DNA of 64,000 nucleotides from Haliangium sp. (GTDB lineage: Bacteria > Myxococcota_A > Polyangia > Haliangiales > Haliangiaceae): the NCBI RefSeq assembly GCF_050303215.1, contig NZ_JBNLBH010000019.1, positions 64,001 through 128,000 on the forward strand. Reading direction: 5' to 3'. Below the pieces are notes generated by a model. The model was not told the origin of the DNA. It was given only the letters and a program-made list of their open reading frames with translations, and searched no databases. Made by a program: the position numbers and the translations under genes. Positions 7,735-63,257 of this stretch are shown one piece after another (within the stretch, counting starts at the first letter, position 1; every line of letters starts with the position of its first letter).

Positions 7735-8042
7735 CGGAGGGTCTTACCTTCGCAAGTGGCTGTGACGAGGGCTGTCTTCGAGCGGCGTATATTACTCTGT
7801 TCGGGTCCGGTTCGCAGCCGCTGGGGGGCTCGATCGATGCCCGAGCAACACACGTGAGCATCGAACGTGCTCGCGCGAAGTTGTCGGGGTGAGCTCGCAT
7901 ACGGATGCAGCCCGCGGACGCTGTCAAGCCCTCTATACGACCTCAGCACGGCTCGGCAAGGGCCGGCGCGGAGACGGCGGCGATTCGTGCGATTGGTCCT
8001 TGCCGGGGTCGGGGAGACGGGGGTATACACCCCTCGGACCGC

Positions 8043-8120
<78 letters not shown>

Positions 8121-8216
8121 CGGCGAGGCGGCGCCGGCCCGCGCCCTCGCCCCTCGCCCCTCGCCCTCGCTCGCCCCCTCGGCTCGGGCCACCGCCGCCT
8201 CCGGCCCTCCCCCCTC

Positions 8217-9079
8217 GTGATCAAGCGCCTGGCCGAAATCGTCATCGACGCCGGTCTCGCCAGCCGCGAGCAGGTGGTGCGGGGCGCCCGCATCGGTGAC
8301 GAGCAACGGATGCCCCTGATCGCGGTGCTGGTCCATCACGCCGGGCTCGATGAGCTGGCCCTGGTGGCCGCGATCCGACGCCAGGTGCGGGTGCCGCTCA
8401 TCGACCCCGCCCTGGTGGACTACGACCCGGAGGCGATGCGCGAGCTGCCCCAAGAGACATGCCGACGGCTGCGGGTCATGCCGCTGGCGATCTCGATCTA
8501 CGATCCGGATACCCGCCTGCTGCGCCTGGCCATGGCCGACCCCACCGACACCATGGCCATCGCCGAGGTCGAACACGTCACCGGGTGCCGGGTCGAGGGC
8601 CACCTGATCCCGCTGTCGGCGGTCGAGGAGCTGATCGACAAGAGCTACCGCTCGTTCGTGACCGAAGTCATGCGCCGCGCGCCGACCTCGCCGGCCGCGA
8701 GCTCGCGCCGCTCGCCGCCATCCCGGCCGGGAGACCCGCCGGCCGCGAGCGCGAGGAAGTCGAGCACGAGCGCCACGAGCACGAGCGCCGAGCCCCCGGC
8801 AGCCGCGCTCGTCGGTCACGACACCCACCGCCTCACCATCCCCGATCGGGGCCCGCCGGCGTTGCACGACGACGATGCAACGGGCACGGCCGAGGTGGAG
8901 ATCGAGCCCGGTGATGACGCACAGCCGTCCACCGTGCCGTTCCACCGCATCGTCGATGAGGCCAGCCTGGAGCTCCGCCACCAGGCGTTGCTGCAGCTCC
9001 TCATCGACAAGGATCTGCTCACGGAGGACGAGTACGAGGAGCAGATACGCCTCCTCATGAGGCGGCGCGACGGGGACTC

Positions 9080-9083
<4 letters not shown>
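8217..9083 (+). CDS. MshEN / GspE-N-terminal (T2SSE_N) domain protein with a disordered Ser/Pro/Ala-rich C-terminus
   Basis: IKRLAEIVIDAGLASREQVVRGARIGDEQRMPLIAVLVHHAGLDELALVAAIRRQVRVPLIDPALVDYDPEAMRELPQETCRRLRVMPLAI matches the GspE N-terminal/MshEN fold, a known cyclic-di-GMP-binding module. A GTG start is proposed at 8217, which is the first in-frame start after the tRNA; the listed 7905 ORF runs through the tRNA and is spurious in its 5' part. The TGA stop overlaps the GTG start of the next gene (GTGA). Confidence 0.55.
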
Positions 9084-19671: not shown

Positions 19672-20604
19672 TCACGCCCCGCCCAGATCCTCCACCAACG
19701 CGGTAGACAGGTAGCGTTCGCCGGTGTCCGGCAGGATCACGACCACGTCCTGGCCCTTCATGCTGTTGCGCTTGGCTACCCGCAGCGCGGCCGCGACCGC
19801 GGCCCCCGACGAGATCCCGGCCAGGATGCCCTCCTCTCGGGCCAGCCGGCGGGCGTGGGTGAGCGCCGCTCGCTCGCTGACCGGGATGATCTCGTCCACG
19901 ATGTCGAGATCCAGATTCTCGGGCACGAACCCGGCGCCGATGCCCTGAATGTAGTGCGGCGCGGGCGGCTTGCCCGAGAGCACGGCCGAGTCGGACGGCT
20001 CCACCGCGATGATGCGGGCCTCGGGACACTTGTCCTTGAGCACCCGCCCGACCCCGGAGATGGTCCCGCCGGTGCCGACGCCGGCCACGAAGGCCCCGAT
20101 TCGGCCCTCGGTGTCCTCGAGGATCTCGCGCGCCGTGGTGCGGGCGTGGGCCTCGGGGTTGGCCGGGTTGCGGAACTGCTCGAGCGACACCGCCCCGGGC
20201 GTGGCCCGCAGCAGCTCCTTGGCCTTGTTCACGGCGTCGCGCATCATCCCGCCGCGGGTCAGCACGACCTCGGCGCCGAACATGCGCAGCAGCGCGATCC
20301 GCTCCCGGCTCATGTTCTCGGGCATGGTGATGACCAGGCGGTACCCCAACGCCGCGGCCGCGAAGGCCAGGGCGATGCCGGTGTTGCCCGAGGTCGCCTC
20401 GACGATGACGGCGCCCGGCTGGAGCACGCCCCGGCGCTCGGCGTCGCGGATCATGGCCACGCCGATGCGATCCTTGATGCTGCCGCACGGGTTGCGCGAC
20501 TCCATCTTGCCGAGCACCCTCGCCTCGACCTTGCTACCGAGACGCCCCAGGTGAATCAAGGGAGTCCGGCCGATCGTATCCACCACGCTGTCATAGATGG
20601 GCAT
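19672..20604 (-). CDS. cysK: Cysteine synthase A (O-acetylserine sulfhydrylase)
   Basis: The product is 310 aa. The PLP lysine motif (NPCGSIKDRIG) and GNTGIALA and TGGT(I)SG motifs are present. Confidence 0.9.
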   Translation of the reverse strand: MPIYDSVVDTIGRTPLIHLGRLGSKVEARVLGKMESRNPCGSIKDRIGVAMIRDAERRGVLQPGAVIVEATSGNTGIALAFAAAALGYRLVITMPENMSRERIALLRMFGAEVVLTRGGMMRDAVNKAKELLRATPGAVSLEQFRNPANPEAHARTTAREILEDTEGRIGAFVAGVGTGGTISGVGRVLKDKCPEARIIAVEPSDSAVLSGKPPAPHYIQGIGAGFVPENLDLDIVDEIIPVSERAALTHARRLAREEGILAGISSGAAVAAALRVAKRNSMKGQDVVVILPDTGERYLSTALVEDLGGA

Positions 20605-20667
20605 CTGCCCATTGCTACCACGCTAGGGCAAACCCGGAAAGAGCGTGGCAGTGCGTCGACGCAATTA

Positions 20668-20695
20668 GGGCCGCCGAGTGAAGACCCGGCGGCCC
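20668..20695 (-). terminator. Possible terminator hairpin downstream of the DsbA-like selenoprotein gene
   Basis: A 9-bp stem GGGCCGCCG-N10-CGGCGGCCC lies about 75 nt past the stop at 20770. The 3' tail on the minus strand (CUAAUUGCGUC) is only weakly U-rich. Confidence 0.3.
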
Positions 20696-20769
20696 TGGTT
20701 ACCGTGACGCGGAGCGTCGCCGCGCGACGGACCCAGCGCGACCCAGATCGATCGCGCCGCGGCCGCGGC

Positions 20770-21600
20770 TCAGAGCTTCTTCTCGCCCTTCTTGATCACC
20801 CACTCGTTGTAGTAGTCGGCGACCGAGGTGCCCTGAGAGACACGCTCGTTGGCCTTCTTGAGCTCTTCGTCAACGACCCGCTTGAAGGCCTCGTAGGGCT
20901 GGGCCCCACGCAGGAAGCGGCCGTTGATGAAGAAGCCGGGCGTGCCGGTGACCCCGAAGGCCTGCAGCTCGCTGTGGTCCTTCTGGATGATCTTGGCGCA
21001 CTCGCCTTCCATGTCGGCCTTGAGGCGATCGATGTTCAAGCCAATCTCGCCGGCGATCTTCTCCATGTTCCCCTGGCTCAGATCTCGGCCGGCGTTGAAA
21101 CCCTTCTCCCAGATCAGCTTCTCCATCTCCGCGAACTTGCCCTGCTTGTCGGCTGCGCACGCAGCCTTGGCCGGGATGGTGGCGGCACCGGGGTGCACGA
21201 TGTAGTGGCGATAGACGATCTTGATGTCGCTCTTGTACTCTTCCAGCAGTTTCTCGAGGGTCGGACCGACCCTCTGGCAAAACGGTCAGGCAAACTCGAA
21301 GGCCTCGACGATCGTGACCTTGGCCTGCTCGGCGCCCTTGTACGGGCCGGTCGCCGGCACGGCGTAGACCTTTGAGGGATCGGGTCCGCGTGGTCTCCTC
21401 GGGCGCTGCGCGGCTGCGCCGCGGTTGCCCCGTTGCAGCAGTTGTTCGATGTTTTGCAGGCGCTTGTCGATCTCGTCGAGCTTCTCGCTGGTCTGCGAGG
21501 TGCCCGCTGGCTGGCAGGCCATGAGCCCGCCGACCGTGAGCGCCAGCACTCCGGTCATGGTCAAAAAGCCGATGGGTTTCATACGCATCCAGTCACCCAC
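20770..21600 (-). CDS. DsbA-family thiol:disulfide oxidoreductase predicted to be a selenoprotein (in-frame UGA = Sec in a U-P-F-C redox motif); signal peptide/lipoprotein
   Basis: Track ORFs 21286..21600 and 20770..21198 are in the same frame. They are separated only by TGA at 21286-21288, and the sequence reads ...VTIVEAFEFA-[TGA]-PFCQRVGPTLEKLLEEYKSD.... The stop falls where the first Cys of the DsbA CxxC motif belongs. A perfect 9-bp inverted repeat (GAGGGUCGG/CCGACCCUC, apical GGUC-like loop) begins 11 nt 3' of the UGA, which is the bacterial SECIS spacing. The N-terminus MKPIGFLTMTGVLALTVGGLMAC is a signal/lipobox-like sequence. Confidence 0.7.
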
Positions 21601-21788
21601 ACCACGGCCCGGCTGTCAACTCCCCGTGTTCACTGCGTCTCAGCACGCGACTGACATGTGGCACAGATCCGCACAATTTGCTGAAATCATTGACGTCGTC
21701 TACACTTTTGCCGGGCTCATCGGCGTGCGGTCCGGTACCCTTGATGTCGACACCGCCGCAGCCGCACGCGGTGCTCAGGAGAGTCGGG

Positions 21789-22445
21789 ATGTCCCAACAG
21801 TCAAACCAAGCAGATCTCGCGCGAACGCGCGACGGCTGCCGTCGGCGCCAGCGTGGCAGCGTTCTCCTGGTGGTGATGGTGTCGCTGGTGGCCCTGGTCA
21901 GCCTCGGCACCTTGACCGTGTTGACCGTCCGCAGCGGGCTGTCAGGGACCAGCCATGACCGCTTCAAGGCGGTGGCCCTGTTCGCGGCCGAGTCGGGCGT
22001 GGCCGTGGCCATGGACTACCTGCGCACCCAGCACCAAGAGGGCCTCAACTGGGGCAGCGTGGTCAACCCCAACAACAACCCGGCCTTTGTCCCGCCTGCC
22101 TCTGACCTGCTCGGCAACGGCGTCAAGCCCGGCCTGCCCGGCAACCTCTTCGACCCCGCCCTGGGCGCCTGGTACGAGGTCGAGATTCGCAACAACCGAG
22201 ACGACGGCCCGCTCGACCCGGGGCCGCCGCCGCGCTTCCTGCAGTTCCAGGCCGGCAAAGACACCGACGGCCGCGTCATCGTGGTGGTGACCGGCCACGG
22301 CCCCAACAACGCCGCCGCGCGCATCGACATCGAGGTCACGCCGCGGGCGCAGGTGGTCCCGTGCGAGACCAGCAACGCCGACAACAGCGGCTTCCGTCGC
22401 TGCGACAACCTGGCCGGAGGAGTCCAGAATGGACGCAATTTCTGA
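21789..22445 (+). CDS. Type IV pilus minor pilin PilX-like (PilX N-terminal domain)
   Basis: MSQQSNQ...RQRGSVLLVVMVSLVALVSLGTLTVLTV is PilX_N-type. The gene lies immediately upstream of pilY1. The start was chosen at the internal ATG (M38 of the listed ORF). Confidence 0.6.
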   Translation: MSQQSNQADLARTRDGCRRRQRGSVLLVVMVSLVALVSLGTLTVLTVRSGLSGTSHDRFKAVALFAAESGVAVAMDYLRTQHQEGLNWGSVVNPNNNPAFVPPASDLLGNGVKPGLPGNLFDPALGAWYEVEIRNNRDDGPLDPGPPPRFLQFQAGKDTDGRVIVVVTGHGPNNAAARIDIEVTPRAQVVPCETSNADNSGFRRCDNLAGGVQNGRNF

Positions 22446-22524
22446 CCCCCTCGACCCGCTCGATCGCCCTGACCCGCGTCCCCGCCTTCGCCTGACTGAG
22501 CCAGACCCCCCGCAGGAGCCCCTC

Positions 22525-25500
22525 ATGACCCTCACGCCTCGCACTGCATTCCACCGGATCCGATGCGCCGGCAGCCGCCTCGGCGCGCTGGCCGCGGCCG
22601 GCCTGGTGCTGGCGCAGGCGCCCGCGGCCTGGGCACAGATCACGCCCTCGGCGCCGACCACGACCGCAAACGGGAGCTTCAACGCCGGCACCCTCGACAG
22701 CGTCACCCAGACCCGCGCCGGCGTGGCCTTCAACGGCACCGCCCTCGAGCTGGCCCACGCCCACGATTCGACCTCGAATCAGTCACAGGCTACCGCCGCC
22801 CCCATCGCCGGCGCCGCGGCCGACTTCACCGGCGACGGCATGGACGACCTGATCGCCGGCTTCGACGACGGCCGGACCGCGGTGCTCCGCAACGACACCA
22901 CCGCAGCGGCGCCCCCGGTGGCGGCGGCGCCCGCGCCCAACTTCACCGCCATCGTGCCCGATCTGCAAGCCGCCGACGGCAACACCCAGGTGGTGCTCGC
23001 GGCCGCCGACTTCGACGGCGACGGCGACCCCGACGTGCTTCGAATCGCGGGCGCGACCGGGGCGACGCCGACCGTGGCCGAGCTCTACCTGCTGACGACC
23101 CGGGCCGACCCGCCGACCTTCGCCGCCGCCACCAACGCGCTCGCGGCGCCGGCGCTGCCGAGCACGCTCGGGACCTTGGACACTCAGTCCGGCGGCACCA
23201 GCGTGGCCGTGGGTGACCTCAACGGCGACAATCGCATCGACTTCCTGTTCGGTAACGCCGACGGTACCGGGGGCGAGATCCGACTGTGGATCAACACCGG
23301 CAGCTCGCCTCCGACCTTTCACGATCAGGGCCCGGTGCTGTCCAACCTCGGCTTTGGCGCCGGCGAGGCGCCCGTGTTCGCGTATGCCGATTTCGACAGC
23401 GACGGCCGCGGCGACCTGGTCGTGGGCGCGCCGGGCTCGACCACCCTGCGCCTGTTCAAGGGCAACGAGGACGGCACCTTCTTCGACACCGGCCTGACCC
23501 TGTCGCTGGGCGCGGCCGGCGCGGCCGGCGTAGCCGCCGCCGACCTGTCCCACGACGGCGTGCCCGACTTGGTGGTCAGCACCGACACCCGCGGCGGTAC
23601 CGGCGGCCAGGTGATGTGGTTCGAGAACGACCGCTCCACGGTGCCGTTCTCGACCAGCGTCGCCATCCCCGACGCCGCCCCGCTCCTCAGTGACGCCGAC
23701 CTGGTGGTGGCGATCAACTACGACAGCAACCCGACCGCCTCGCCCAGCGCCGACCACTCGGTCGACGTCCTGGTCACCCAGGTCGGCGGGTCGCTGGAGC
23801 TGTTCAGCAACATCTTGAGCTCCAACTACGTGAGCTGCGGCGAGGTCGTGTCCGACGTGATCGACTTCGGCGCCGCCCCGTACGGGCTCCCCTTCACCAC
23901 CACGATGGTGATCTCGGCCGCCCGGATGCAGACCCTGGTGGGCGGCAGCGGCACGGTCGAGCTGTTCATGTCGACCTCCGAGGACCCGACCTGGGTCCCG
24001 ACCTTCGACTGCGACGGCGCCGGCCCAGGCACCGAGCAGTGCGCGCGCTTCCCTCACACGCGCGGCCGCGAGCTGCGCTGGAAGGCCCGCATGTGCACCG
24101 CCGCTGCGGCGTCGACCCCGGCCCTGTTCGCGGTCAGCGTCCGCTTCGACTACGTCGAGGACAGCGAGCACTACCTGAGCGGCATCAGCGTATTCGACGG
24201 CGTGGCCTACTTCGGCGGCTTCACCCAGCCGGGCGACGTCGGCCAGCTCTACGCGCTGTCGGCCGACCTCAACCCGACCGCCGACCCCGCCTTCGACTAC
24301 TGGAGCGGTCGCATCAAGCTCGACACCATGGCCGACGCCGCCCGCAACGTCTACACCGCGGCCCGCGACGGCACCACTCGACTCGACTTCGCGACCACCA
24401 ACAGCGGCAACGCCCAGCTCCAGGAGATCCTGAGCGTGGCCGACTCGACCGCGGCCGACGCCATCATCAACTGGGCCCGCGACTACCGCTTCGGCCCGCT
24501 CGGGCTGTCGTTCACCCGCTTGGGCTCGATCTTCCGCTCGACCCCCACGCCGGTGGGCCGGCCGCTGTTCCCGGCCTGGTACGCGCGGGCGTCGTCGGAC
24601 GCGCGGCTCGAGTTCGACGAGCACGCCAACGGCCTGGGCGCGCGCACGGTGCTGATCTACTACGGCGCCCGCGACGGCATGATCCACGCCACGTACAACG
24701 ACGCCACCGACATCACCAACAGCCAGAACGGCCAGGAGGCGTGGGCCTACATCCCGCCGCCGGTGGCGAGCCGCATGGCCGCCGACTTCACCGCCTCCTC
24801 CGGGATCTTCGACCGGATCCAGGCCTACCCGGATTCCGACACGCTGGTCGAGACCGTGCGCATCGGCGCCGATCTGCGCTCGGTGGCGCTGTTCACCAGC
24901 GGCACCGGCGGCAGCAGCATCGCCGCCCTCGACATCACCGCGACCATCGACGAGGGCACCTCGGCCGTGCTCGGCCCGACCCCGCTGTGGCACGCCACCC
25001 CGGGCGCCAGCGAGGCCGGCCTGGGCCTCAGCCGACCCACCATCGCGCGGGTGCTCATCGGCGGCAACGAGCGCTTCATCGCCATCGCCGGCACCGGCTA
25101 CGGCGCCGATCCGGTGCGCCCGTCGGGCCGGGTCGTAGCTGCCTACGACGTCACCGACGGCACCCTGCTGTGGCGCTTCATGGCCCGCTGCGCGGTGACC
25201 ACCCACATCACCGCCTTCGAGACCAACGACGAGCCCGGGGCCGGCAACCCGCAGCTCGACGGCTTCATGGATCGGGTCGTGTTCGGCGATCAGTGCGGCT
25301 ACGTGTACAAGCTCGACCCGGCCCAGGATCTCAGCGGCGGCTGGAACGGCAACCCCAACTTCGGCGCGATCCCGACCGACCTCGTGGACGGGGTGCAGAT
25401 GTTCGCCCTGTTCGCCACCTCGGCCCAGCCCGAGGCCGGCAACCTCGAGCTGCCCATCGCCGGCAACATCGCGGTCCGGGCCATCCCCGACCAGGCCACG

Positions 25501-26115
25501 GCGACCACCCGCTCCGCGCTGTTCTTCGGCACCGGCGGGATCGAGAGCGCCGACCCCTTCAACCAGAACGTGTTCTTCGTCCTGTTCGCCGACGACACCA
25601 CCCTCGACACCCCGCCGGGGCCGCCGTTCACGGCCGCACCCGCGCGCGTCGCCAGCTTCTTCCGCGGCGTGTGCGCCGCCGATCTGCGGTGCGAGAAGTT
25701 CTACGGCGGGATCACGCTCACCGGCGGCCAGGTGGTGTTCACGCGCGTGCTCGACCCGCCGGTCGGCGACACCGCCGGGGTCGGCAGCGACCCCGGCCAG
25801 ACCATCGTCCAGGCCATCGACGTCACCGCGCTGCTCGACGCCAGCTTCGACGCCGACGATCCCCTGTTCGACCTCGACAGCTTCGGGGTCAGCTACACCG
25901 TCGGGGCGGCCTCGTTCTCACCGGTCACCATGTACGGCGACGCAGTGTACGTGCTGACCTCGCTGGGCCGGGCCGAGGTCATGGGCACCCCGCGGGCGCA
26001 GCAGGCCGGTCAGGACAGCTCCGGCAACGCCCTCACAGCCACCACCACCGACCCCGAGGGGATCGTCAACATCGAGGCGCCCATGCGCATCCTGGGCTGG
26101 CAGCAAGTGTACTAG
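22525..26115 (+). CDS. pilY1: Type IV pilus tip-associated adhesin PilY1-family protein with an N-terminal FG-GAP (integrin-alpha-like) propeller domain
   Basis: The signal peptide is MTLTPRTAFHRIRCAGSRLGALAAAGLVLAQAPAAWA. There are at least five FG-GAP/Ca-binding repeats (DFTGDGMDDLIAG, DFDGDGDPDVL, VGDLNGDNRIDFLFG, YADFDSDGRGDLVVGAPG, ADLSHDGVPDLVV). The C-terminal PilY1 propeller has the hallmark TVLIYYGARDGMIHATYNDA...NGQEAWAYIPP. A large minus-strand ORF (22783..25206) overlaps and is rejected. Confidence 0.8.
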   Translation: MTLTPRTAFHRIRCAGSRLGALAAAGLVLAQAPAAWAQITPSAPTTTANGSFNAGTLDSVTQTRAGVAFNGTALELAHAHDSTSNQSQATAAPIAGAAADFTGDGMDDLIAGFDDGRTAVLRNDTTAAAPPVAAAPAPNFTAIVPDLQAADGNTQVVLAAADFDGDGDPDVLRIAGATGATPTVAELYLLTTRADPPTFAAATNALAAPALPSTLGTLDTQSGGTSVAVGDLNGDNRIDFLFGNADGTGGEIRLWINTGSSPPTFHDQGPVLSNLGFGAGEAPVFAYADFDSDGRGDLVVGAPGSTTLRLFKGNEDGTFFDTGLTLSLGAAGAAGVAAADLSHDGVPDLVVSTDTRGGTGGQVMWFENDRSTVPFSTSVAIPDAAPLLSDADLVVAINYDSNPTASPSADHSVDVLVTQVGGSLELFSNILSSNYVSCGEVVSDVIDFGAAPYGLPFTTTMVISAARMQTLVGGSGTVELFMSTSEDPTWVPTFDCDGAGPGTEQCARFPHTRGRELRWKARMCTAAAASTPALFAVSVRFDYVEDSEHYLSGISVFDGVAYFGGFTQPGDVGQLYALSADLNPTADPAFDYWSGRIKLDTMADAARNVYTAARDGTTRLDFATTNSGNAQLQEILSVADSTAADAIINWARDYRFGPLGLSFTRLGSIFRSTPTPVGRPLFPAWYARASSDARLEFDEHANGLGARTVLIYYGARDGMIHATYNDATDITNSQNGQEAWAYIPPPVASRMAADFTASSGIFDRIQAYPDSDTLVETVRIGADLRSVALFTSGTGGSSIAALDITATIDEGTSAVLGPTPLWHATPGASEAGLGLSRPTIARVLIGGNERFIAIAGTGYGADPVRPSGRVVAAYDVTDGTLLWRFMARCAVTTHITAFETNDEPGAGNPQLDGFMDRVVFGDQCGYVYKLDPAQDLSGGWNGNPNFGAIPTDLVDGVQMFALFATSAQPEAGNLELPIAGNIAVRAIPDQATATTRSALFFGTGGIESADPFNQNVFFVLFADDTTLDTPPGPPFTAAPARVASFFRGVCAADLRCEKFYGGITLTGGQVVFTRVLDPPVGDTAGVGSDPGQTIVQAIDVTALLDASFDADDPLFDLDSFGVSYTVGAASFSPVTMYGDAVYVLTSLGRAEVMGTPRAQQAGQDSSGNALTATTTDPEGIVNIEAPMRILGWQQVY

Positions 26116-26117
26116 CC

Positions 26118-26681
26118 ATGATCGTCCCAACGCCTCGCACGCATGCCCTGGAGCCCGCCATGGTCGATCCGCGCCTCCCTCGTTCTTCGTCGCCCACGCC
26201 GCCTCGGCGGCGCCACAGCCACCAGGCCGGCTTCTCGCTCATCGAGATCATCATCGCCATGGCGGTGAGCCTGATCGGTCTGGCCGGGCTGATGTCGCTG
26301 TACACGACCAACTCCAAGGCCAACCAGCGGGTCACCCGCACGGTCGAGGCCACGGCCCTGGCCCAGCGCTCCCTGGAGGAGCTGCGCAGCATACCGGTGG
26401 CGCCGCCGTCGCCGAGCTACGACGGGCCCACCCTCGAAACCAACTTCGGCATCCCGGTGGTGGACGCGCCCCTGCCCGACGTCGTCGGACACGCCAACAC
26501 GACCTTCCAGCGCCGGGTGACCATCCAGCCCCTGGCCCCGACCAGCGCGCCGACCCCGACCCTGTTCCGGATCCGCATGGTGGTACGCTGGAGCGACGAC
26601 GGGGCCGCCATCGGCACCGATCCCTTGCGCGACCACACCGTCGCCCTCGAGACCATCCGCACGCGTCAGGACAAGCTATGA
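26118..26681 (+). CDS. Type IV pilus minor pilin (PilV-like) with prepilin N-terminal cleavage/methylation domain
   Basis: The prepilin motif is HQAGFSLIEIIIAMAVSLIGLAGL (G-F-S-L-I-E). An ATG lies 2 nt after the pilY1 stop. An alternative start at MVDPRL (26160) would give a shorter leader. The listed ORF 24039..26681 is an upstream run-on in the same frame. Confidence 0.65.
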   Translation: MIVPTPRTHALEPAMVDPRLPRSSSPTPPRRRHSHQAGFSLIEIIIAMAVSLIGLAGLMSLYTTNSKANQRVTRTVEATALAQRSLEELRSIPVAPPSPSYDGPTLETNFGIPVVDAPLPDVVGHANTTFQRRVTIQPLAPTSAPTPTLFRIRMVVRWSDDGAAIGTDPLRDHTVALETIRTRQDKL

Positions 26682-27997
26682 AGGCACGACTTGGTACAAT
26701 CGTCCCAGGATCGGGCGCGCGGCGCCGACGCGGCGAGCGCGGCTTGACCTTGATCGAGCTGATGATCGCCATGGTGGTGGCCGCGATCTTGGTCGGCTTC
26801 GTGTTCGACATCCAAAGCCGGATGTCGACCGCCTACCGCTCGCAGACCGACATCGGGTCGCTGCAGCAGGGCGTGCGCGCGGCCGCCGAGATGATGGCCC
26901 GCGACGCCCGCGCGGCCGGCTTCGCCATGCCCCGCGGCGCCAAGCTCAGCAACAAGTTCACCTCCGTCAACGCGCCCGGCACCCCCGGGCTGATCGAGCT
27001 CTCGACCGCCGCGCCGCTGCCGCCCCTGGCCTTCACCCCCATGCTGCGCCCGATCAAGTCCATCGACAACGCCTGGGAGCTGACCTCTCCGGGCAGCTTC
27101 CCCGCCGATCACTGGCAACCGGACAGCGTGCACTTCTTCTACGGGATCGACTTCGATACCCACGGCGTGATCAGCCAGGATCCGGGCGCGACCATCACCT
27201 TCATCACCCTCGAAGACGACGGCAACTACGGCGACGGCAACGCCTGGCAGACCGGCGACTTGGTCGTCATCAGCAACTCGCTGCCGCCGGCGCCCAACCC
27301 GCTGGACCCCGGCGGCACCGACCAGGATCTGCCGACGATCTCGCGCTATGACGCGTGCATCGTGCAGATCACGGGCCCGTTCAACTCGACCGGCCCCCCT
27401 ACCCTTCAGTTCGCCGACACCACGATCTTCAACAGCGCGGACAACAACCACTGCGCCGGCATCGCCGTGCAAGGGGCGCACGTGTACCTCCTGATCGCAC
27501 GCGCCTATCGCATCGACACCACCCGCCCCCGCATCGCGGCGTTGCAGCGCTCCGAGACCGGTGGCCTGCTCGATGACTGGCAGGACATCGCCATCGGCTT
27601 CGTCGACCTGCAGATCTCCGAGCACCACGCGTATACGACCGATCCCGACGGCGACCTCGATGGTATCCTCATCGGCGGGACCCCGAACGCGCGCATGGAC
27701 TGGTACTCGAACCTGGCGCCGCCGCCACAACCGGCGCCCGCCGCCGACCCAATGGTGCACCTCGACACCTTGACCGAGCTCGGAATCAGCCTGGTGGCGC
27801 GAACGAACAAGCCGGTGGAGGGCGTTACCACGGCCACCATCCCGGTGCTGGCGACGGGCGTGCTCGACCACAACCCGGTCGGCAACGCCGGCGGTCCCAA
27901 GGCCAACGACCCGTCCCACCCCGAGTTCGACGGTGATCACGTGTATCGCCAGATCTCACTGATCGTGGACACCCGCAACGTCGGAGTCTCGAGATGA
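26678..27997 (+). CDS. Type IV pilus minor pilin PilW-like
   Basis: The product is 439 aa. The prepilin motif is RGLTLIELMIAMVVAAILVG. Size and position fit a PilW-like protein. Confidence 0.7.
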   Translation: MKARLGTIVPGSGARRRRGERGLTLIELMIAMVVAAILVGFVFDIQSRMSTAYRSQTDIGSLQQGVRAAAEMMARDARAAGFAMPRGAKLSNKFTSVNAPGTPGLIELSTAAPLPPLAFTPMLRPIKSIDNAWELTSPGSFPADHWQPDSVHFFYGIDFDTHGVISQDPGATITFITLEDDGNYGDGNAWQTGDLVVISNSLPPAPNPLDPGGTDQDLPTISRYDACIVQITGPFNSTGPPTLQFADTTIFNSADNNHCAGIAVQGAHVYLLIARAYRIDTTRPRIAALQRSETGGLLDDWQDIAIGFVDLQISEHHAYTTDPDGDLDGILIGGTPNARMDWYSNLAPPPQPAPAADPMVHLDTLTELGISLVARTNKPVEGVTTATIPVLATGVLDHNPVGNAGGPKANDPSHPEFDGDHVYRQISLIVDTRNVGVSR

Positions 27998-28647
27998 CCC
28001 ACCCGCCGCAACCGTGCCTCCCGCAGTCTTCGGCCCATCGTCCGAGATATACTCTCGGCCAGCGCGGCCTCACCTTGATCGAAGTGATGATCGTCGTGGT
28101 GATCATCGGGGTGCTGGTCGGCACCGCGGCGGTCACGATCTCCACCGAGCCGTCGGTGGAGGACGAGGCCCGCCGCATCGCCGCGTTGATCAATGAAGGC
28201 GCGCGCAAGGCGGTCTCCGGCGGCTCGATCGATGTGGACGCGATCGTGGGTAACGCCGCCGGCCTATTCCGCAGTCAGATCTCGGTCCGCCAGAGCGCGT
28301 CCGGCCGGCTGTTCCTGCTGGTCGAGCGCTTCGAGGAAGGCACCGGCCTGTACCGCGAGATCTACCGGCGCAACATCAACCGGGGTATCGTCGTGGCCGG
28401 CTTTAGCTCTCAGTCCGAGATCAATCCGGGCACGACCCCGACCCCGCTGCCGCCGCCGCCGCCGCCGCCGTTCCCCGTGGACGCCGTGCCGCTGGCGTCC
28501 ACTCAGTGCCGCCCCGACGGCACCTGTAGGCCGTGGACGCTGTACCTCGAGAGCGCCGACAACCCCGGCGCGCCCGGCAACCCTCGGGCCCGGGTGGTCG
28601 TGCTCGCCCTCAACGGCATGAACACTCAGATGTTCAGCGGCTGGTAG
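27994..28647 (+). CDS. GspH/FimT/FimU-family pseudopilin
   Basis: The prepilin motif is QRGLTLIEVMIVVVIIGVLVG. It is followed by a GspH/FimT-like domain and a PPPPPPP linker. Confidence 0.65.
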   Translation: MTHPPQPCLPQSSAHRPRYTLGQRGLTLIEVMIVVVIIGVLVGTAAVTISTEPSVEDEARRIAALINEGARKAVSGGSIDVDAIVGNAAGLFRSQISVRQSASGRLFLLVERFEEGTGLYREIYRRNINRGIVVAGFSSQSEINPGTTPTPLPPPPPPPFPVDAVPLASTQCRPDGTCRPWTLYLESADNPGAPGNPRARVVVLALNGMNTQMFSGW

Positions 28648-28791
28648 CCGCGGGCCGGGCCGCCCCACGCGCTCGGACGCACGCTCGGGCGCGGGGGAAA
28701 CGGCCCTCTCGCGACCGCAGGCGTTGTGCGCCGGCGGCCAGGGGTGATATACGAACCGAACGTTCGATCGAAGGGGCAGACCGTGAACGCT

Positions 28792-29388
28792 ATGAGGTGC
28801 ATCCTGGCGGTGATGGCGCTCGTCTCGTGGAGCGCGTGCGGCGGCGCGCCGCCGCCGAATTACGACTACAGCAAGGAACCCGATCCGCGTCAGGACGAGT
28901 ACGTGTTCGGGGTCGCCGACTCCCTCGACATCAACGTGTGGCGCAACCCGGACCTGTCCACGCGGGTGACCATCCGCCCGGACGGCACCATCACGATGCC
29001 GCTCATCGGCGATCTGCACGCGGCCGGGGTCACCCCGAGCCAGCTCAAGAAGCAGATCGAGGCCCGGCTGGCCGAGTACATCAAGCTCGAGGGCACCGAG
29101 ATCACGATCGCGGTCACCAACGTGGCCAGCTATCACTTCATGGTGAGTGGCGAAGTGGGGGCCCCGAATGTCTACACCTCGGCCTATTACGTCACGGTGG
29201 CCGAGGCCATCGCGTTGGCGGGCGGGTTCTCGCGCTTCGCCAAGCGCGACCGCATTCGCCTGATGCGGCGCGACCGCGAGACCGGGGAGGTGCGCAACAT
29301 CCCCATCGATTACAACTTGATCGAGAGCGGCGCGCGCCCGGAGATGAATCTGGTCATCTTGTCCGACGACTCCCTGTACGTGCCCTAG
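28792..29388 (+). CDS. Polysaccharide export protein, short Wza-like periplasmic lipoprotein (Poly_export + SLBB domains) lacking the C-terminal OM helical barrel
   Basis: The lipoprotein signal is MRCILAVMALVSWSACGG. The Poly_export motif is EYVFGVADSLDINVW...RPDGTITMPLIGDL. An SLBB-like segment is GEVGAPNVY. The protein is about 198 aa, so it is too short to carry the Wza D4 helix. Confidence 0.8.
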   Translation: MRCILAVMALVSWSACGGAPPPNYDYSKEPDPRQDEYVFGVADSLDINVWRNPDLSTRVTIRPDGTITMPLIGDLHAAGVTPSQLKKQIEARLAEYIKLEGTEITIAVTNVASYHFMVSGEVGAPNVYTSAYYVTVAEAIALAGGFSRFAKRDRIRLMRRDRETGEVRNIPIDYNLIESGARPEMNLVILSDDSLYVP

Positions 29389-44871: not shown

Positions 44872-50704
<5,833 letters not shown>

Positions 50705-51431: not shown

Positions 51432-52118
51432 TCACTGCCCCGGTTGCGGCGGCGTTGGCTGACCTGGCTGGCCCGGCGGACTCGGCGCGGCCGGCTGGGT
51501 CGAGATGTCGAGGTGGAAGGTCGAGGCCACGAAGCGGGCGACCATCTGTGCGTCCCCGTCCGTGATGTTGGTGTCACTCAGGTGGAGATCTTCCACTGAC
51601 ACGATCCGGTCTCCCGAGACCGCGATCCCTTCGCCGTCCTGGGCGGTGGCGAGCGCGCGCGGCCCCAACAGATAAAAGTATCGGACCAGGCTCATGAAGT
51701 CGCCCGCGATCTCGAGCCGCACTGGGACTCGGACGTACACGTCGACCTTCTCGGGCTTGAGCTGTTCCCACTTGCTGATGGTCACCCCGGACTCGCCGGC
51801 GCGCCGTTGCAGGAAGTCGAAGAAGCCCGACATCTCGGGCTGGGTGGGCAGCGCGCGCTGGTTGGCACGAATGCTCTGCTCGAGCTCCTCCATGCGCTGC
51901 AGCAGCCGCTTTTTCTGCTCGAGGTCGCTGTCGAGCTGCCGCTGTTCGCTCAGCAGCGTGCTCTGTCGAGACTCGAGGTAGCTGAGGCGATCGCTGATGT
52001 CGGTGTAGAAGAACTGCCAATACAGCATGCCGCCGAGCACGAGCGGGATGAGCACCACCCCGAGCTTGTAGCCGGCGGACTTCTTGGCCAGATCGTCGAA
52101 GAAATCGTTGTCAGCCAT
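51432..52118 (-). CDS. pilO: Type IV pilus assembly protein PilO
   Basis: The product is 228 aa. It has an N-terminal TM (LGVVLIPLVLGGMLYWQFF), a coiled coil and a PilO periplasmic domain. Its position in the pilMNOPQ order fits. Confidence 0.8.
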   Translation of the reverse strand: MADNDFFDDLAKKSAGYKLGVVLIPLVLGGMLYWQFFYTDISDRLSYLESRQSTLLSEQRQLDSDLEQKKRLLQRMEELEQSIRANQRALPTQPEMSGFFDFLQRRAGESGVTISKWEQLKPEKVDVYVRVPVRLEIAGDFMSLVRYFYLLGPRALATAQDGEGIAVSGDRIVSVEDLHLSDTNITDGDAQMVARFVASTFHLDISTQPAAPSPPGQPGQPTPPQPGQ

Positions 52119-52119
52119 G

Positions 52120-52758
52120 TCAGTAGGCCGCCTTTCCCACGATCGTGAAGTTGTAGAAGCTGTTGCCGCTGTCCTTGTCGGTGGCCTCGGAGCCGCCGAT
52201 GGGGCGCACGTCGTAGAAGTACACCGAGGCGTCGAGCCGGATCGCGAACTGGGTCATGTCGCTGTCGGACTGGGCGGAACCCTCGAGCCGGAAGCTGCCA
52301 TCCTTGTCCTCCTTGAAGCTCTTGATCCACAGGTGTGACGGATCCCAGTCGCGCACGAACTCACGCACCCGCCCCTCTTCGATCTGCTTCTGGATCTCGG
52401 CGGTCATGGTCGGCAGCTCATTGGGGGTGAGGATGCGCGACAGCTCGAACAGCATGTGCGCCGGCAGCGATCGGGCCTGGTTGAGGCGCTCGACCACCGC
52501 CGCCCGAGCCTCGGCGTCGGCGATGGTGCGCTTGAGTTGCTCGTAGCCCTTGAGTTCGTTCTGCTTGTCCAGGTTCTCGCGCTCGAGCGCACCCACCGCG
52601 CGCTCGAGCTGATCGCGCTGCCCGCCCACGGGCGAGTGCACCAGCACGTAGATGGCCACGAACGCACCGATCCAGACCAGGGCCGCCAGCAGCATGAAGC
52701 GCTGCCCTCGGCCGGCGGTCTTGGGACGACGAAGCGGAGATAGGTTGATCTTGATCAT
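52120..52758 (-). CDS. pilN: Type IV pilus assembly protein PilN
   Basis: MIKINLSP.R is the PilN N-terminus that binds PilM. One TM and a coiled coil follow. Confidence 0.85.
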   Translation of the reverse strand: MIKINLSPLRRPKTAGRGQRFMLLAALVWIGAFVAIYVLVHSPVGGQRDQLERAVGALERENLDKQNELKGYEQLKRTIADAEARAAVVERLNQARSLPAHMLFELSRILTPNELPTMTAEIQKQIEEGRVREFVRDWDPSHLWIKSFKEDKDGSFRLEGSAQSDSDMTQFAIRLDASVYFYDVRPIGGSEATDKDSGNSFYNFTIVGKAAY

Positions 52759-52776
52759 GCCCGAGTCCCTTCGTGT

Positions 52777-53823
<1,047 letters not shown>

Positions 53824-53953
53824 GTATCACCCGGAGGAGCGCTGTCCATCAGAGCACTTCCTCTCACTGATACCTACCGTATCCTACATGCCCCGACAGT
53901 ACGCAAGAAATTGGCATCACTTTGATGCGGCAGTACTCGCTCGCTTGATTATG

Positions 53954-55462
<1,509 letters not shown>

Positions 55463-55858
55463 AGAGCTCCCCTCCGGTGCATGAACAGACGTCGACGAAG
55501 CGATACGGGCACACAAACCATCAAGAGCGTAGCTCGGATGTTCGACCCTGTCATCTTCGCGACGATGGTCACGCGAGCGGGCGCACAGACCGGTGTCGGG
55601 CTCGGTCCCCCGTCGCCTACATATCCGGACGTCATCGCAGAACGCGCGCAGTTCTCCCGGGTCACCCGGCACAACGTCGCTCGCTTGTCAGGGTAGCGGC
55701 GCTCGGACTACTATCTGGCGCAGGCCACGTACCGTCGTTGGAGCGCGTCCAACCGGGCTCGGCCCAGCCTTGGAGGTCGCCCGCCTATCGCGCTATGTAG
55801 GCGGGGATCTTATCGACTGCTATACCTAGCATTGGAAAACGAGAGTCAGGAGCTCATC

Positions 55859-60883: not shown

Positions 60884-61633
60884 ATGGGCTCGCTCGACGA
60901 ATTCGACTGGAAGACCCGCACCTTCCTGCGCCTATATCGCTGGCGTCGGCTCGATCCCGTGCCCTGGACCAGCCTCGCTCGCCCCCTGTCCCAGTGCCGG
61001 GTGGCGCTGGTGAGCTCAGCCGGGCTGGTCGGCCCCGGCCAGCCCGATTTCGATCCCGGCGTCCGCGGCGGTGATTTTTCCTACCGCGTGCTCGATCGAG
61101 ACGTCGATCTCACCCTCCTGCGCGACAGCCACCGCTCGGCCACCTACGACCACGCCCACGTCGAGGCCGACCCCAACGTGGCCTTCCCCCTCGACCGCCT
61201 GCGCGAGCTCGCTGCGCGCGGCACCATCGCCGAGGTGGCCCCGCGTCACCTGTCGTTCATGGGCAGCATCACGGCGCCCGGGCGCCTCATTCGGCGCACC
61301 GCCCCGGCCGCGGCCGAGCTCCTGGCCGCCGACCAAGTCGACGTCGCCCTGCTGATCCCGATATGACCCACCTGCCATCAGACCGTGGGTCTGATCCAAG
61401 CCGAACTCGAGCGCCGGGGCGTGGTCACCGCCTCGGTCTCGATGCTGCGCTCGGTCACCGAGCGCGTCCGCCCCCCCCGCGCCCTGGTGGTGCCCTTTCC
61501 CCACGGCCAGCCGCTCGGCCGGGCCGGGGCCGTCGCCACCCAGCACCGCGTGCTCGCCGCCCTGCTGGCCCTGGTCGAGCACGCCGCCCCGCCTCCGCCC
61601 GTGATCGTCGAATGGCGCGCCGATGTCATATGA
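60884..61633 (+). CDS. GrdB/PrdB-family (glycine/betaine/sarcosine/D-proline reductase selenoprotein B-like) C-terminal-domain protein; predicted selenoprotein with in-frame UGA (Sec) in a U-P-T-C motif
   Basis: Track ORFs 60884..61366 and 61385..61633 share a frame and are interrupted only by TGA at 61364-61366. The joined sequence reads ...[10 protein letters not shown]...DVALLIPI-[U][19 protein letters not shown]...[11 protein letters not shown]. From memory, this aligns with the GrdB segment ...AVILTSTUGTCTRCGATMVKEIERAGLPVVHI...VAIPHPLGNP, placing the stop at the Sec position. An 8-bp stem AUCAGACC-GUG-GGUCUGAU begins 10 nt 3' of the UGA and is SECIS-like. Confidence 0.7.

Positions 61634-62159: not shown

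Positions 62160-63253
<1,094 letters not shown>

Positions 63254-63257
<4 letters not shown>

Follow-up and report, generated by a model that had tools for sequence, protein, structure and literature searches.

A DsbA-Family Lipoprotein Gene of Haliangium sp. with an In-Frame UGA and a Compact SECIS-Type Hairpin: A Probable Envelope Selenoprotein

Gene Structure and Reading Frame

We examined a 64,000-nucleotide stretch of the genome of Haliangium sp. (NCBI RefSeq assembly GCF_050303215.1, contig NZ_JBNLBH010000019.1, positions 64,001 to 128,000 of the forward strand; hereafter the window, numbered from its first nucleotide), which carries on its minus strand a gene for a DsbA-like thiol:disulfide oxidoreductase that is interrupted by a single in-frame TGA at the place of the first active-site cysteine. 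An earlier note, made from the letters of the window, had described two same-frame open reading frames (ORFs) parted by this one TGA and had proposed that the codon is read as selenocysteine (Sec). Translation of 21600..20770 on the minus strand bears out the arrangement: it runs as one frame with a sole internal stop, preceded by AEQAKVTIVEAFEFA and followed by PFCQRVGPTLEKLLEEYK, and the immediate surroundings of the stop read VTIVEAFEFA-stop-PFCQRVGPTLE. In the ORF listing of the window, the two halves are given separately (21286-21600 and 20770-21198). The likely start of the gene is the ATG at 21582 (MKPIG), in agreement with both the homologues and RefSeq entry WP_428261889.1, and not the GTG at 21600 from which the earlier note had begun it, so that the frame and the TGA of its gene span stand but the start is moved. 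The 171 codons downstream of the TGA form an open frame in the window, as does the corresponding stretch of nearly all homologues having complete downstream sequence.

The expectation that gene finders would split this gene is matched by the public record, in which the 98-residue N-terminal piece (MKPIG...FEFA) is RefSeq WP_428261889.1, a “hypothetical protein”, and the 142-residue C-terminal piece, counted from the GTG at 21198, is a separate, unnamed entry. The features of the gene, together with those of a second TGA-interrupted gene in the window that is discussed below, are collected in Table 1.

Table 1. Coordinates of the Features Assigned in the Window, with the Evidence for Each (Nucleotide Numbers within the mRNA Count the U of the UGA as 1)
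Feature	Position	Strand	Basis
Complete DsbA-like gene, predicted selenoprotein	20770..21582	-	270 codons, including the internal UGA, followed by terminal TGA at 20772-20770
Putative lipoprotein signal peptide MKPIGFLTMTGVLALTVGGLMAC, residues 1-23, lipobox L-M-A-C at residues 20-23	21514..21582	-	Judged by eye
Heptad-like segment KLDEIDKRLQNIEQLL and Pro/Arg-rich linker, residues 24-77	21352..21513	-	Alignment
DsbA/Thioredoxin_4 domain, residues 78-239, spanning the UGA	20866..21351	-	Pfam
UGA codon, probably read as Sec, residue 99, first position of the U-P-F-C redox motif	21286..21288	-	Cys at this column in Cys-type homologues and in PDB 4pwo
Resolving Cys102 of U-P-F-C	21277..21279	-	Nearly invariant column; TGC or TGT at nt 10-12 in 47/47 Sec-type sequences
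SECIS-type hairpin, 8-bp stem, GUC loop, mRNA nt 15-33	21256..21274	-	Perfect inverted repeat, fold, covariation
Apical G23-U24, presumed SelB contact	21265..21266	-	Invariant in 47/47 Sec-type sequences
Invariant Cys142	21157-21159	-	Homologue alignment
Invariant Cys195	20998-21000	-	Homologue alignment
cis-Pro loop G213-T214-P215	20938-20946	-	Invariant in homologue alignment
Second putative selenoprotein gene, PrdB/GrdB-like	60884..61633	+	UGA at 61364-61366 in U-P-T-C; in-frame TGA scan

Domain Architecture and Active Site

Profile searches were run on the 270-residue product with Cys placed at the stop. The joined protein matches PF13462 Thioredoxin_4 (E = 7e-21, 75.6 bits) over profile positions 4-165 of 165, corresponding to residues 78-239, and also passes the gathering threshold of PF01323 DSBA (E = 1.6e-20, 74.1 bits, cut-off 25.6). 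As the Pfam domain begins 21 residues before the TGA, both halves are needed to make it up. A sequence search of the PDB returned DsbA-family structures with E down to 4e-19, among which the F-E-C-P-F-C of 4pwo aligns with the F-A-U-P-F-C of the window protein. At the sequence level, the product thus has the hallmarks of the DsbA superfamily (a thioredoxin fold with a helical insertion), namely a CxxC-type site aligned with the CPFC of 4pwo, a G-T-P cis-Pro loop, and Pfam coverage of 4-165/165. In the homologue alignment, the part downstream of the TGA retains Cys102 and the catalytic cis-Pro loop. The statement in the earlier note that the stop replaces the first Cys of a thioredoxin-fold C-P-F-C motif agrees with the alignment to 4pwo and with the CPFC or CPYC found in full-length homologues.

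The N-terminus (MKPIGFLTMTGVLALTVGGLMAC, with a lipobox-like L-M-A-C) is consistent with the exported lipoprotein that had been proposed, and the alignment shows a hydrophobic stretch followed by Cys to be kept across homologues. Between this region and the catalytic domain, a KLDxIxxRLxxIE pattern and an RPQRPxxPDP linker are common to the homologues, and the heptad-like segment is a possible coiled coil.

Homologues and Recurrence of the TGA

A protein search returned 636 relatives; the top ones, which belong to Haliangium, Kofleriaceae, and related metagenome-assembled genomes (MAGs), share 50-64% identity with the window protein over its full length. The alignment with DsbA-like homologues that had been proposed as a check was built from 23 of the best hits (alignment A1), and in all 20 of the full-length sequences among them the column of the stop holds Cys, in the form of CPFC or CPYC. 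Three database relatives depart from this pattern: P0063 has Trp at the stop column, and P0115 and P0120 start just past it. The DNA behind these three entries (L001-L004) has a TGA at exactly the stop codon, with intact frames on both sides.

Further TGA-containing members were sought in two ways. Genomes were scanned with a degenerate DNA pattern for [AG][FY][ED][FY]A-TGA-P[FY]C, using one genome per species across 185,579 species, which gave 23 loci, compared to a chance expectation of about 4 by our own information-content estimate. Twenty of the 23 belong to the DsbA-like lipoprotein family, all of them in MAGs; their labels are Myxococcales, Kofleriaceae, Haliangiales, Nannocystaceae, or the broader delta-/Proteobacteria, and every label at the order or family level falls within Myxococcota. 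The other three (L014, L018, and L024) lack DsbA homology and were set aside as chance matches. The metagenome scan was motif-neutral, as its seeds (GTPAFFING and DEELKKA) lie far from the active site; among its 80 loci, the active sites comprise 20 with TGA and 52 with Cys codons (20/72 TGA).

In total, we obtained 47 distinct homologous sequences with TGA at this column, with 32-65% identity to the window protein; their sources are metagenomes and genomes of Myxococcota (Kofleriaceae, Haliangiales, Nannocystaceae). Several subfamilies can be told apart among these Sec-type sequences (QKVGPT, ERVRAT, QRVSST, LRVRET, and others), and Sec-type and Cys forms are interleaved in a neighbor-joining tree. 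Tandem paralogues are frequent: Sec and Cys forms occur side by side in L006, L009, L011, L015, L019, and L026, and two Sec copies share one locus in three cases (L017, L056, and L102). We also calculated Nei-Gojobori ratios of nonsynonymous to synonymous substitution (dN/dS) downstream of the TGA, but do not rely on them: most pairs lie near or above 1 with synonymous sites that are saturated or constrained by a GC content of ~90% at third codon positions (GC3), and the sole usable pair, the closely related L088/L103, gives 0.12.

We note two further observations on copy number and integrity within the family. Three or four Cys copies stand in a row at the metagenome loci L046, L053, L096, and L101. 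In the MAG MFD05684.bin.1.145 (L011 4725-5440), the frame of the Sec-type gene shifts ~55 codons past the TGA, and the near-identical gene of bin.1.144 (L026 1984-2500) is intact; the frameshift reflects either decay of this copy or an indel introduced by assembly.

A SECIS-Type Hairpin Directly Downstream of the UGA

Bacterial Sec codons are followed by a selenocysteine insertion sequence (SECIS), and the earlier note had pointed to a perfect 9-bp inverted repeat 11 nt past the UGA. The repeat, GAGGGTCGG/CCGACCCTC, is indeed present, with arms at 21256-21264 and 21266-21274 that are 100% complementary and 1 nt apart, and the distance from the UGA to the first paired base is exactly 11 nt. However, a single intervening base cannot form a loop, and the real hairpin is therefore one of 8 bp with a GUC triloop (or of 7 bp with a GGUCC loop). 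The apex is G22-G23-U24-C25, with G23-U24-C25 in the loop. Folded in a 27-nt context, the hairpin has a free energy of -14.1 kcal/mol, with z = -2.56 relative to shuffled sequences. As a measure of background, the window has 7.2e-4 perfect hairpins of 8 bp or more per nucleotide per strand, and an in-register 4-bp core together with GU follows just 5 of its 1386 TGA trinucleotides.

The hairpin was then assessed for covariation in an ungapped 45-nt alignment of the 47 Sec-type sequences. Standard pairs fill 87% of the pair cells; shifting the 3' arm by 1-3 columns lowers this figure to 28-55%. In the core, pairs 18-21:27-30 form in no fewer than 98% of the sequences. Double-sided changes are found in five of the eight pairs, for example G18-C30 to C-G, U20-A28 to C-G, and G22-C26 to A-U or C-G. 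The codon that holds G23-U24 encodes Gly, Ser, or Arg depending on the subfamily, and the GU is nonetheless invariant, even though U24 is a wobble base and T occupies other wobble positions in these segments in just 7.7% of cases. For comparison, we assembled 56 distinct Cys-type sequences, including paralogues that stand beside Sec forms: 33 of 34 Sec forms have GU at nt 23-24 together with the four core pairs, as opposed to 2 of the 56 Cys-type sequences, and GU as such likewise occupies these positions in 2 of the 56. The amino acid variation, the compensatory pairs, and the contrast between Sec and Cys forms thus point to selection on the RNA, and argue for a hairpin that is maintained at the RNA level and tied to the TGA.

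Two individual sequences depart from this pattern. The sequence at L039 195 is the sole Sec-type member with a broken hairpin core (a C21/C27 mismatch), with Gly and not Ala as the residue before Sec; degeneration of the copy and a variant form of the SECIS are two possible explanations. The Cys-type paralogue at L015 983 (CPYCERVRPTM) retains G23-U24 as well as the four core pairs, and looks as if it had been converted recently from a Sec form.

The SECIS of Escherichia coli fdhF is a hairpin 11 nt from the UGA that begins at nt 15 and has G23 and U24 as conserved apical bases (PMC8659212). The window hairpin shares with it this 11-nt spacing, the start at nt 15, the apical G23/U24, and the location inside the coding sequence directly 3' of the UGA, so that the likeness drawn in the earlier note holds in these respects; it does not extend to the bulged U17 of the E. 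coli element. In addition, the loop in the window family is of 3 nt (GUC/GUU/GUG) and larger in fdhF, and the window stem is a perfect 8 bp without an extended lower helix.

A Second TGA-Interrupted Gene and the Decoding of UGA

A window-wide scan for in-frame TGAs flanked by coding-like frames identified a second gene of this kind, 40 kb from the DsbA-like gene. The joined protein of 249 residues matches PF07355 GRDB (glycine/sarcosine/betaine reductase selenoprotein B) with 46.8 bits against a cut-off of 22, and TIGR04483 PrdB with 111 bits, which is under the equivalog cut-off. Its full-length homologues read VPV-C-PMC at the UGA column, and of the best 120 homologue clusters, ~100 have a length of 160 aa, with their end exactly at this column. 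The gene is likewise split in public annotation, into pieces of 160 and 82 residues, the former being identical to RefSeq WP_428261918.1 from Haliangium sp. (taxid 2663208, Kofleriaceae). An 8-bp hairpin, AUCAGACC-GUG-GGUCUGAU (61377-61395), starts 10 nt after its UGA and folds with -10.3 kcal/mol (z = -2.79), with a competing fold favored in longer context. The presence of a second TGA-interrupted gene from a selenoprotein family lends indirect support to the decoding of UGA as Sec in the genome of this Haliangium sp., and both Haliangium ochraceum and Plesiocystis pacifica are listed among Sec-utilizing organisms (PMC5029168, Table S2).

As TGA is the normal stop of 21 of the 30 genes in the window, the DsbA-like gene among them, the genetic code here is the standard one, and a code in which TGA is reassigned is ruled out. 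Rfam, run on the whole window and on 21150-21350, returned just two tRNAs and noise, and tRNA-Sec was not among the matches.

Weighing the Selenocysteine Reading

Taking these data together, we read the locus as one gene that encodes a membrane-anchored, extracytoplasmic DsbA-family thiol:disulfide oxidoreductase with Sec as its predicted nucleophile (U99-P-F-C102), and put the probability of this reading at roughly 90%. The selenoprotein proposed in the earlier note is therefore supported.

A number of points weigh against this assignment. Concerning the machinery, ARAGORN found no tRNA-Sec in the 64-kb window or in 21 related loci (8-kb), Pfam detected no SelA, SelB, or SelD among 29 window ORFs, and selA, selB, selD, and tRNA-Sec are likewise not in the 8-kb related loci or in the 7 kb beyond the right end of the window (L108). 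Concerning the hairpin, no Rfam SECIS family matched, either over the whole window at gathering thresholds or over 21150-21350 in E-value mode, and the absence of the bulged U17 noted above is a departure from the E. coli element. In a 71-nt context the fold is no better than that of shuffled sequences (z = -0.82), such that the signal is local and comparative. While none of 500 column shuffles attained the observed pairing or covariation score, this control overstates significance for related sequences; the hairpin moreover lies in a conserved coding stretch, and its conservation is partly shared with that of the encoded peptide. Finally, 13 of the 56 Cys forms keep four pairable core positions, in their case without the GU.

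The alternative that survives best, which we nevertheless regard as very unlikely, is that the UGA is recoded but not as Sec, either by a near-cognate or suppressor tRNA that inserts Cys, Trp, or Gly, or by a tRNA(Sec)-like species that is charged with Cys and delivered through the same hairpin. Conservation of the TGA and the hairpin proves recoding and not the identity of the inserted residue, and that selA and selD were not found in the data at hand would fit such a scheme. Sec is favored over it by the bacterial SECIS layout, with its spacer of 11 nt, a hairpin that begins at nt 15, and G23-U24, by the position of the codon at a Cys/Sec redox site in a family with known Sec forms, by the same arrangement in a second gene from a classic selenoprotein family, by the use of Sec in related cultured genera, and by the role of TGA as the main ordinary stop codon.

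The recurrence of the TGA at the identical column in 47 distinct sequences from many species, which are as little as 32-65% identical, leaves even less room for a pseudogene, in which a TGC or TGT codon of a normal CPFC DsbA would have become TGA by nonsense mutation, with the hairpin being coincidental. One base change would suffice to turn the Cys codon into TGA, RefSeq handles the N-terminal part as a separate short protein, and Sec machinery was not found in the window, all of which would be in keeping with gene decay; however, the downstream frames are open with their catalytic residues conserved, and G23-U24 and the helix, with its compensatory changes, are conserved only in the TGA forms. 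The least probable alternative is that of two separate genes, a 98-residue coiled-coil lipoprotein ending at the TGA and an independently translated C-terminal thioredoxin-like protein, as their separate public entries and the ORF listing would have it, because the Pfam domain extends from residue 78, ahead of the TGA, to beyond this codon, the first in-frame start after the TGA (GTG 21198) would remove Cys102 and the first helix, and the Cys-type homologues are single proteins of 260-280 residues that are colinear with both pieces.

Proposed Mechanism

Under the preferred reading, that of a single selenoprotein gene, expression would follow the known course of Sec insertion in bacteria through SelB, GTP, and Sec-tRNA(Sec), as summarized in PMC9312934. 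By analogy with that course, SelB carrying GTP and Sec-tRNA(Sec) would bind the apical GU of the hairpin with the ribosome paused at the UGA; Sec would then be inserted in place of termination, and the ribosome would unwind the hairpin and read it as Q-R-V-G-P-T-L. Judging from the N-terminal sequence, the product would be exported by means of its lipoprotein signal peptide and lipidated on Cys23, and the catalytic domain would be displayed on a coiled-coil/Pro-rich stalk. The selenenylsulfide couple U99-C102 may then oxidize, reduce, or shuffle the disulfides of envelope proteins. By general selenium chemistry, this couple would be more nucleophilic than a disulfide and would exchange faster.

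Relation to Known Selenoproteins and DsbA Proteins

UxxC selenoproteins related to DsbA have been described since 2004-2005: DsbA-like (PF01323) forms are known from nine Sargasso Sea sequences and from Anaeromyxobacter dehalogenans, Desulfovibrio, and Desulfotomaculum, and a UxxC DsbG-like selenoprotein (NF041057) is an established family (PMC1088965, PMC1794560, PMC13188914). The sole NCBIfam match of the window protein is to this latter model, NF041057 “Rcas_1661 family thioredoxin-like (seleno)lipoprotein”, with 67.2 bits (E = 1.5e-18) against a cut-off of 190, which makes the window protein a relative of NF041057 and not a member. The two share a DsbA/Thioredoxin_4-type fold, the lipoprotein character, Sec as the first residue of UxxC, and the presence of Cys-type relatives in the family, whereas the window protein lies outside the equivalog, in a group restricted to Myxococcota with an N-terminal heptad and Pro/Arg-rich stalk.

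With the DsbA-like selenoprotein form 1, the window protein shares the match to PF01323 and Sec as the first residue of UxxC, a likeness that rests on profile and motif. A precedent for this form is known in another myxobacterium, Anaeromyxobacter dehalogenans, which also has a “proline reductase” selenoprotein. The Sargasso Sea DsbA-like family was assigned to COG2761, whereas the best Pfam match of the window protein is PF13462. We take COG2761 to be the FrnE-type DsbA-like group, and the label of protein-disulfide isomerase that JGI gives to homologues of the window protein presumably fits COG1651 better. Among Cys-type DsbA structures (4pwo/4pwp “DsbA”, 7unn, 3gyk, ScsC 4gxz, and BdbD 3eu3), the domain and the G-T-P cis-Pro loop are shared with the window protein, and 4pwo also shares its F-x-C-P-F-C active-site context. 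These proteins differ from it in having a Cys nucleophile and in lacking a Sec codon with a SECIS as well as the coiled-coil stalk.

Taking these comparisons into account, a gene of this kind is already covered by the literature, and no new mechanism is revealed. What goes beyond the known picture is modest, and lies in the restriction to a Myxococcota lineage, the high fraction of Sec forms, the tandem Sec/Cys pairs, and the compact SECIS without a bulge.

Genomic Neighborhood

Directly downstream of the DsbA-like gene and on the same strand lies a gene for a cysteine synthase-like pyridoxal phosphate enzyme (PF00291, 19672-20604, minus strand). A PF00291 neighbor likewise follows the Sec-type homologue on the metagenome contig L002 (767-871), and the pairing of the two genes may be conserved. 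On its other side, the DsbA-like gene is divergent from a pilin-like gene whose start is at 21678. The locus is surrounded by genes for type IV pili and secretion (7893-9083, 21678-29388, and 51432-55687), which include those for an MshEN-domain protein, an N-methyl pseudopilin, a polysaccharide export protein, pilM/N/O, a sigma-54 activator, and a PilY1/FG-GAP protein of 1228 aa (22429-26115). A scan of 20450-21900 for promoters and terminators found nothing, and the 64-kb window contains no Cys-type paralogue of the DsbA-like gene.

Elsewhere in the window, a class V aminotransferase of the cysteine desulfurase/selenocysteine lyase type (PF00266, ~62160-63257, minus strand; L108 3336-4433) lies just downstream of the PrdB/GrdB-like gene, after a Usp-domain gene; a link of this enzyme to selenium metabolism is speculation. 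A gene for a fused shikimate kinase and 3-dehydroquinate synthase (AroK-AroB, 44872-46695, minus strand) adjoins aroQ and accB/accC.

Conclusions

The present analysis corrects an annotation in which residues 1-98 figure in RefSeq as a hypothetical protein while the active enzyme is missing, an error that extends to many homologues, which are truncated or misread in public collections. A motif-neutral sample, in which 20 of 72 active sites are of the Sec type, shows DsbA lipoproteins of this type to be common in Kofleriaceae, Haliangiales, and Nannocystaceae. The 47 aligned sequences show how a very compact SECIS (8 bp, GU triloop, bulge-less) varies in nature, and could help to tune both bacterial SECIS predictors and engineered Sec insertion. 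For the organisms themselves, the predicted protein would bring a selenolate nucleophile to the envelope of bacteria that are predatory and largely aerobic.

We further raise, as a tentative and still somewhat doubtful proposal, that the coiled-coil DsbA lipoproteins of the Polyangia form a separate lineage outside NF041057, with repeated exchange between Sec and Cys, Sec in about a quarter of its members, and, in many cases, tandem Sec/Cys or Sec/Sec paralogues. If this were true, then, because gene callers truncate these proteins, they would make up a largely unannotated class of selenolipoproteins exported by the Sec pathway, and aerobic myxobacteria would gain a selenium-dependent envelope disulfide catalyst of higher reactivity with a Cys backup, comparable to the Sec/Cys isoenzyme pairs of methanogens.

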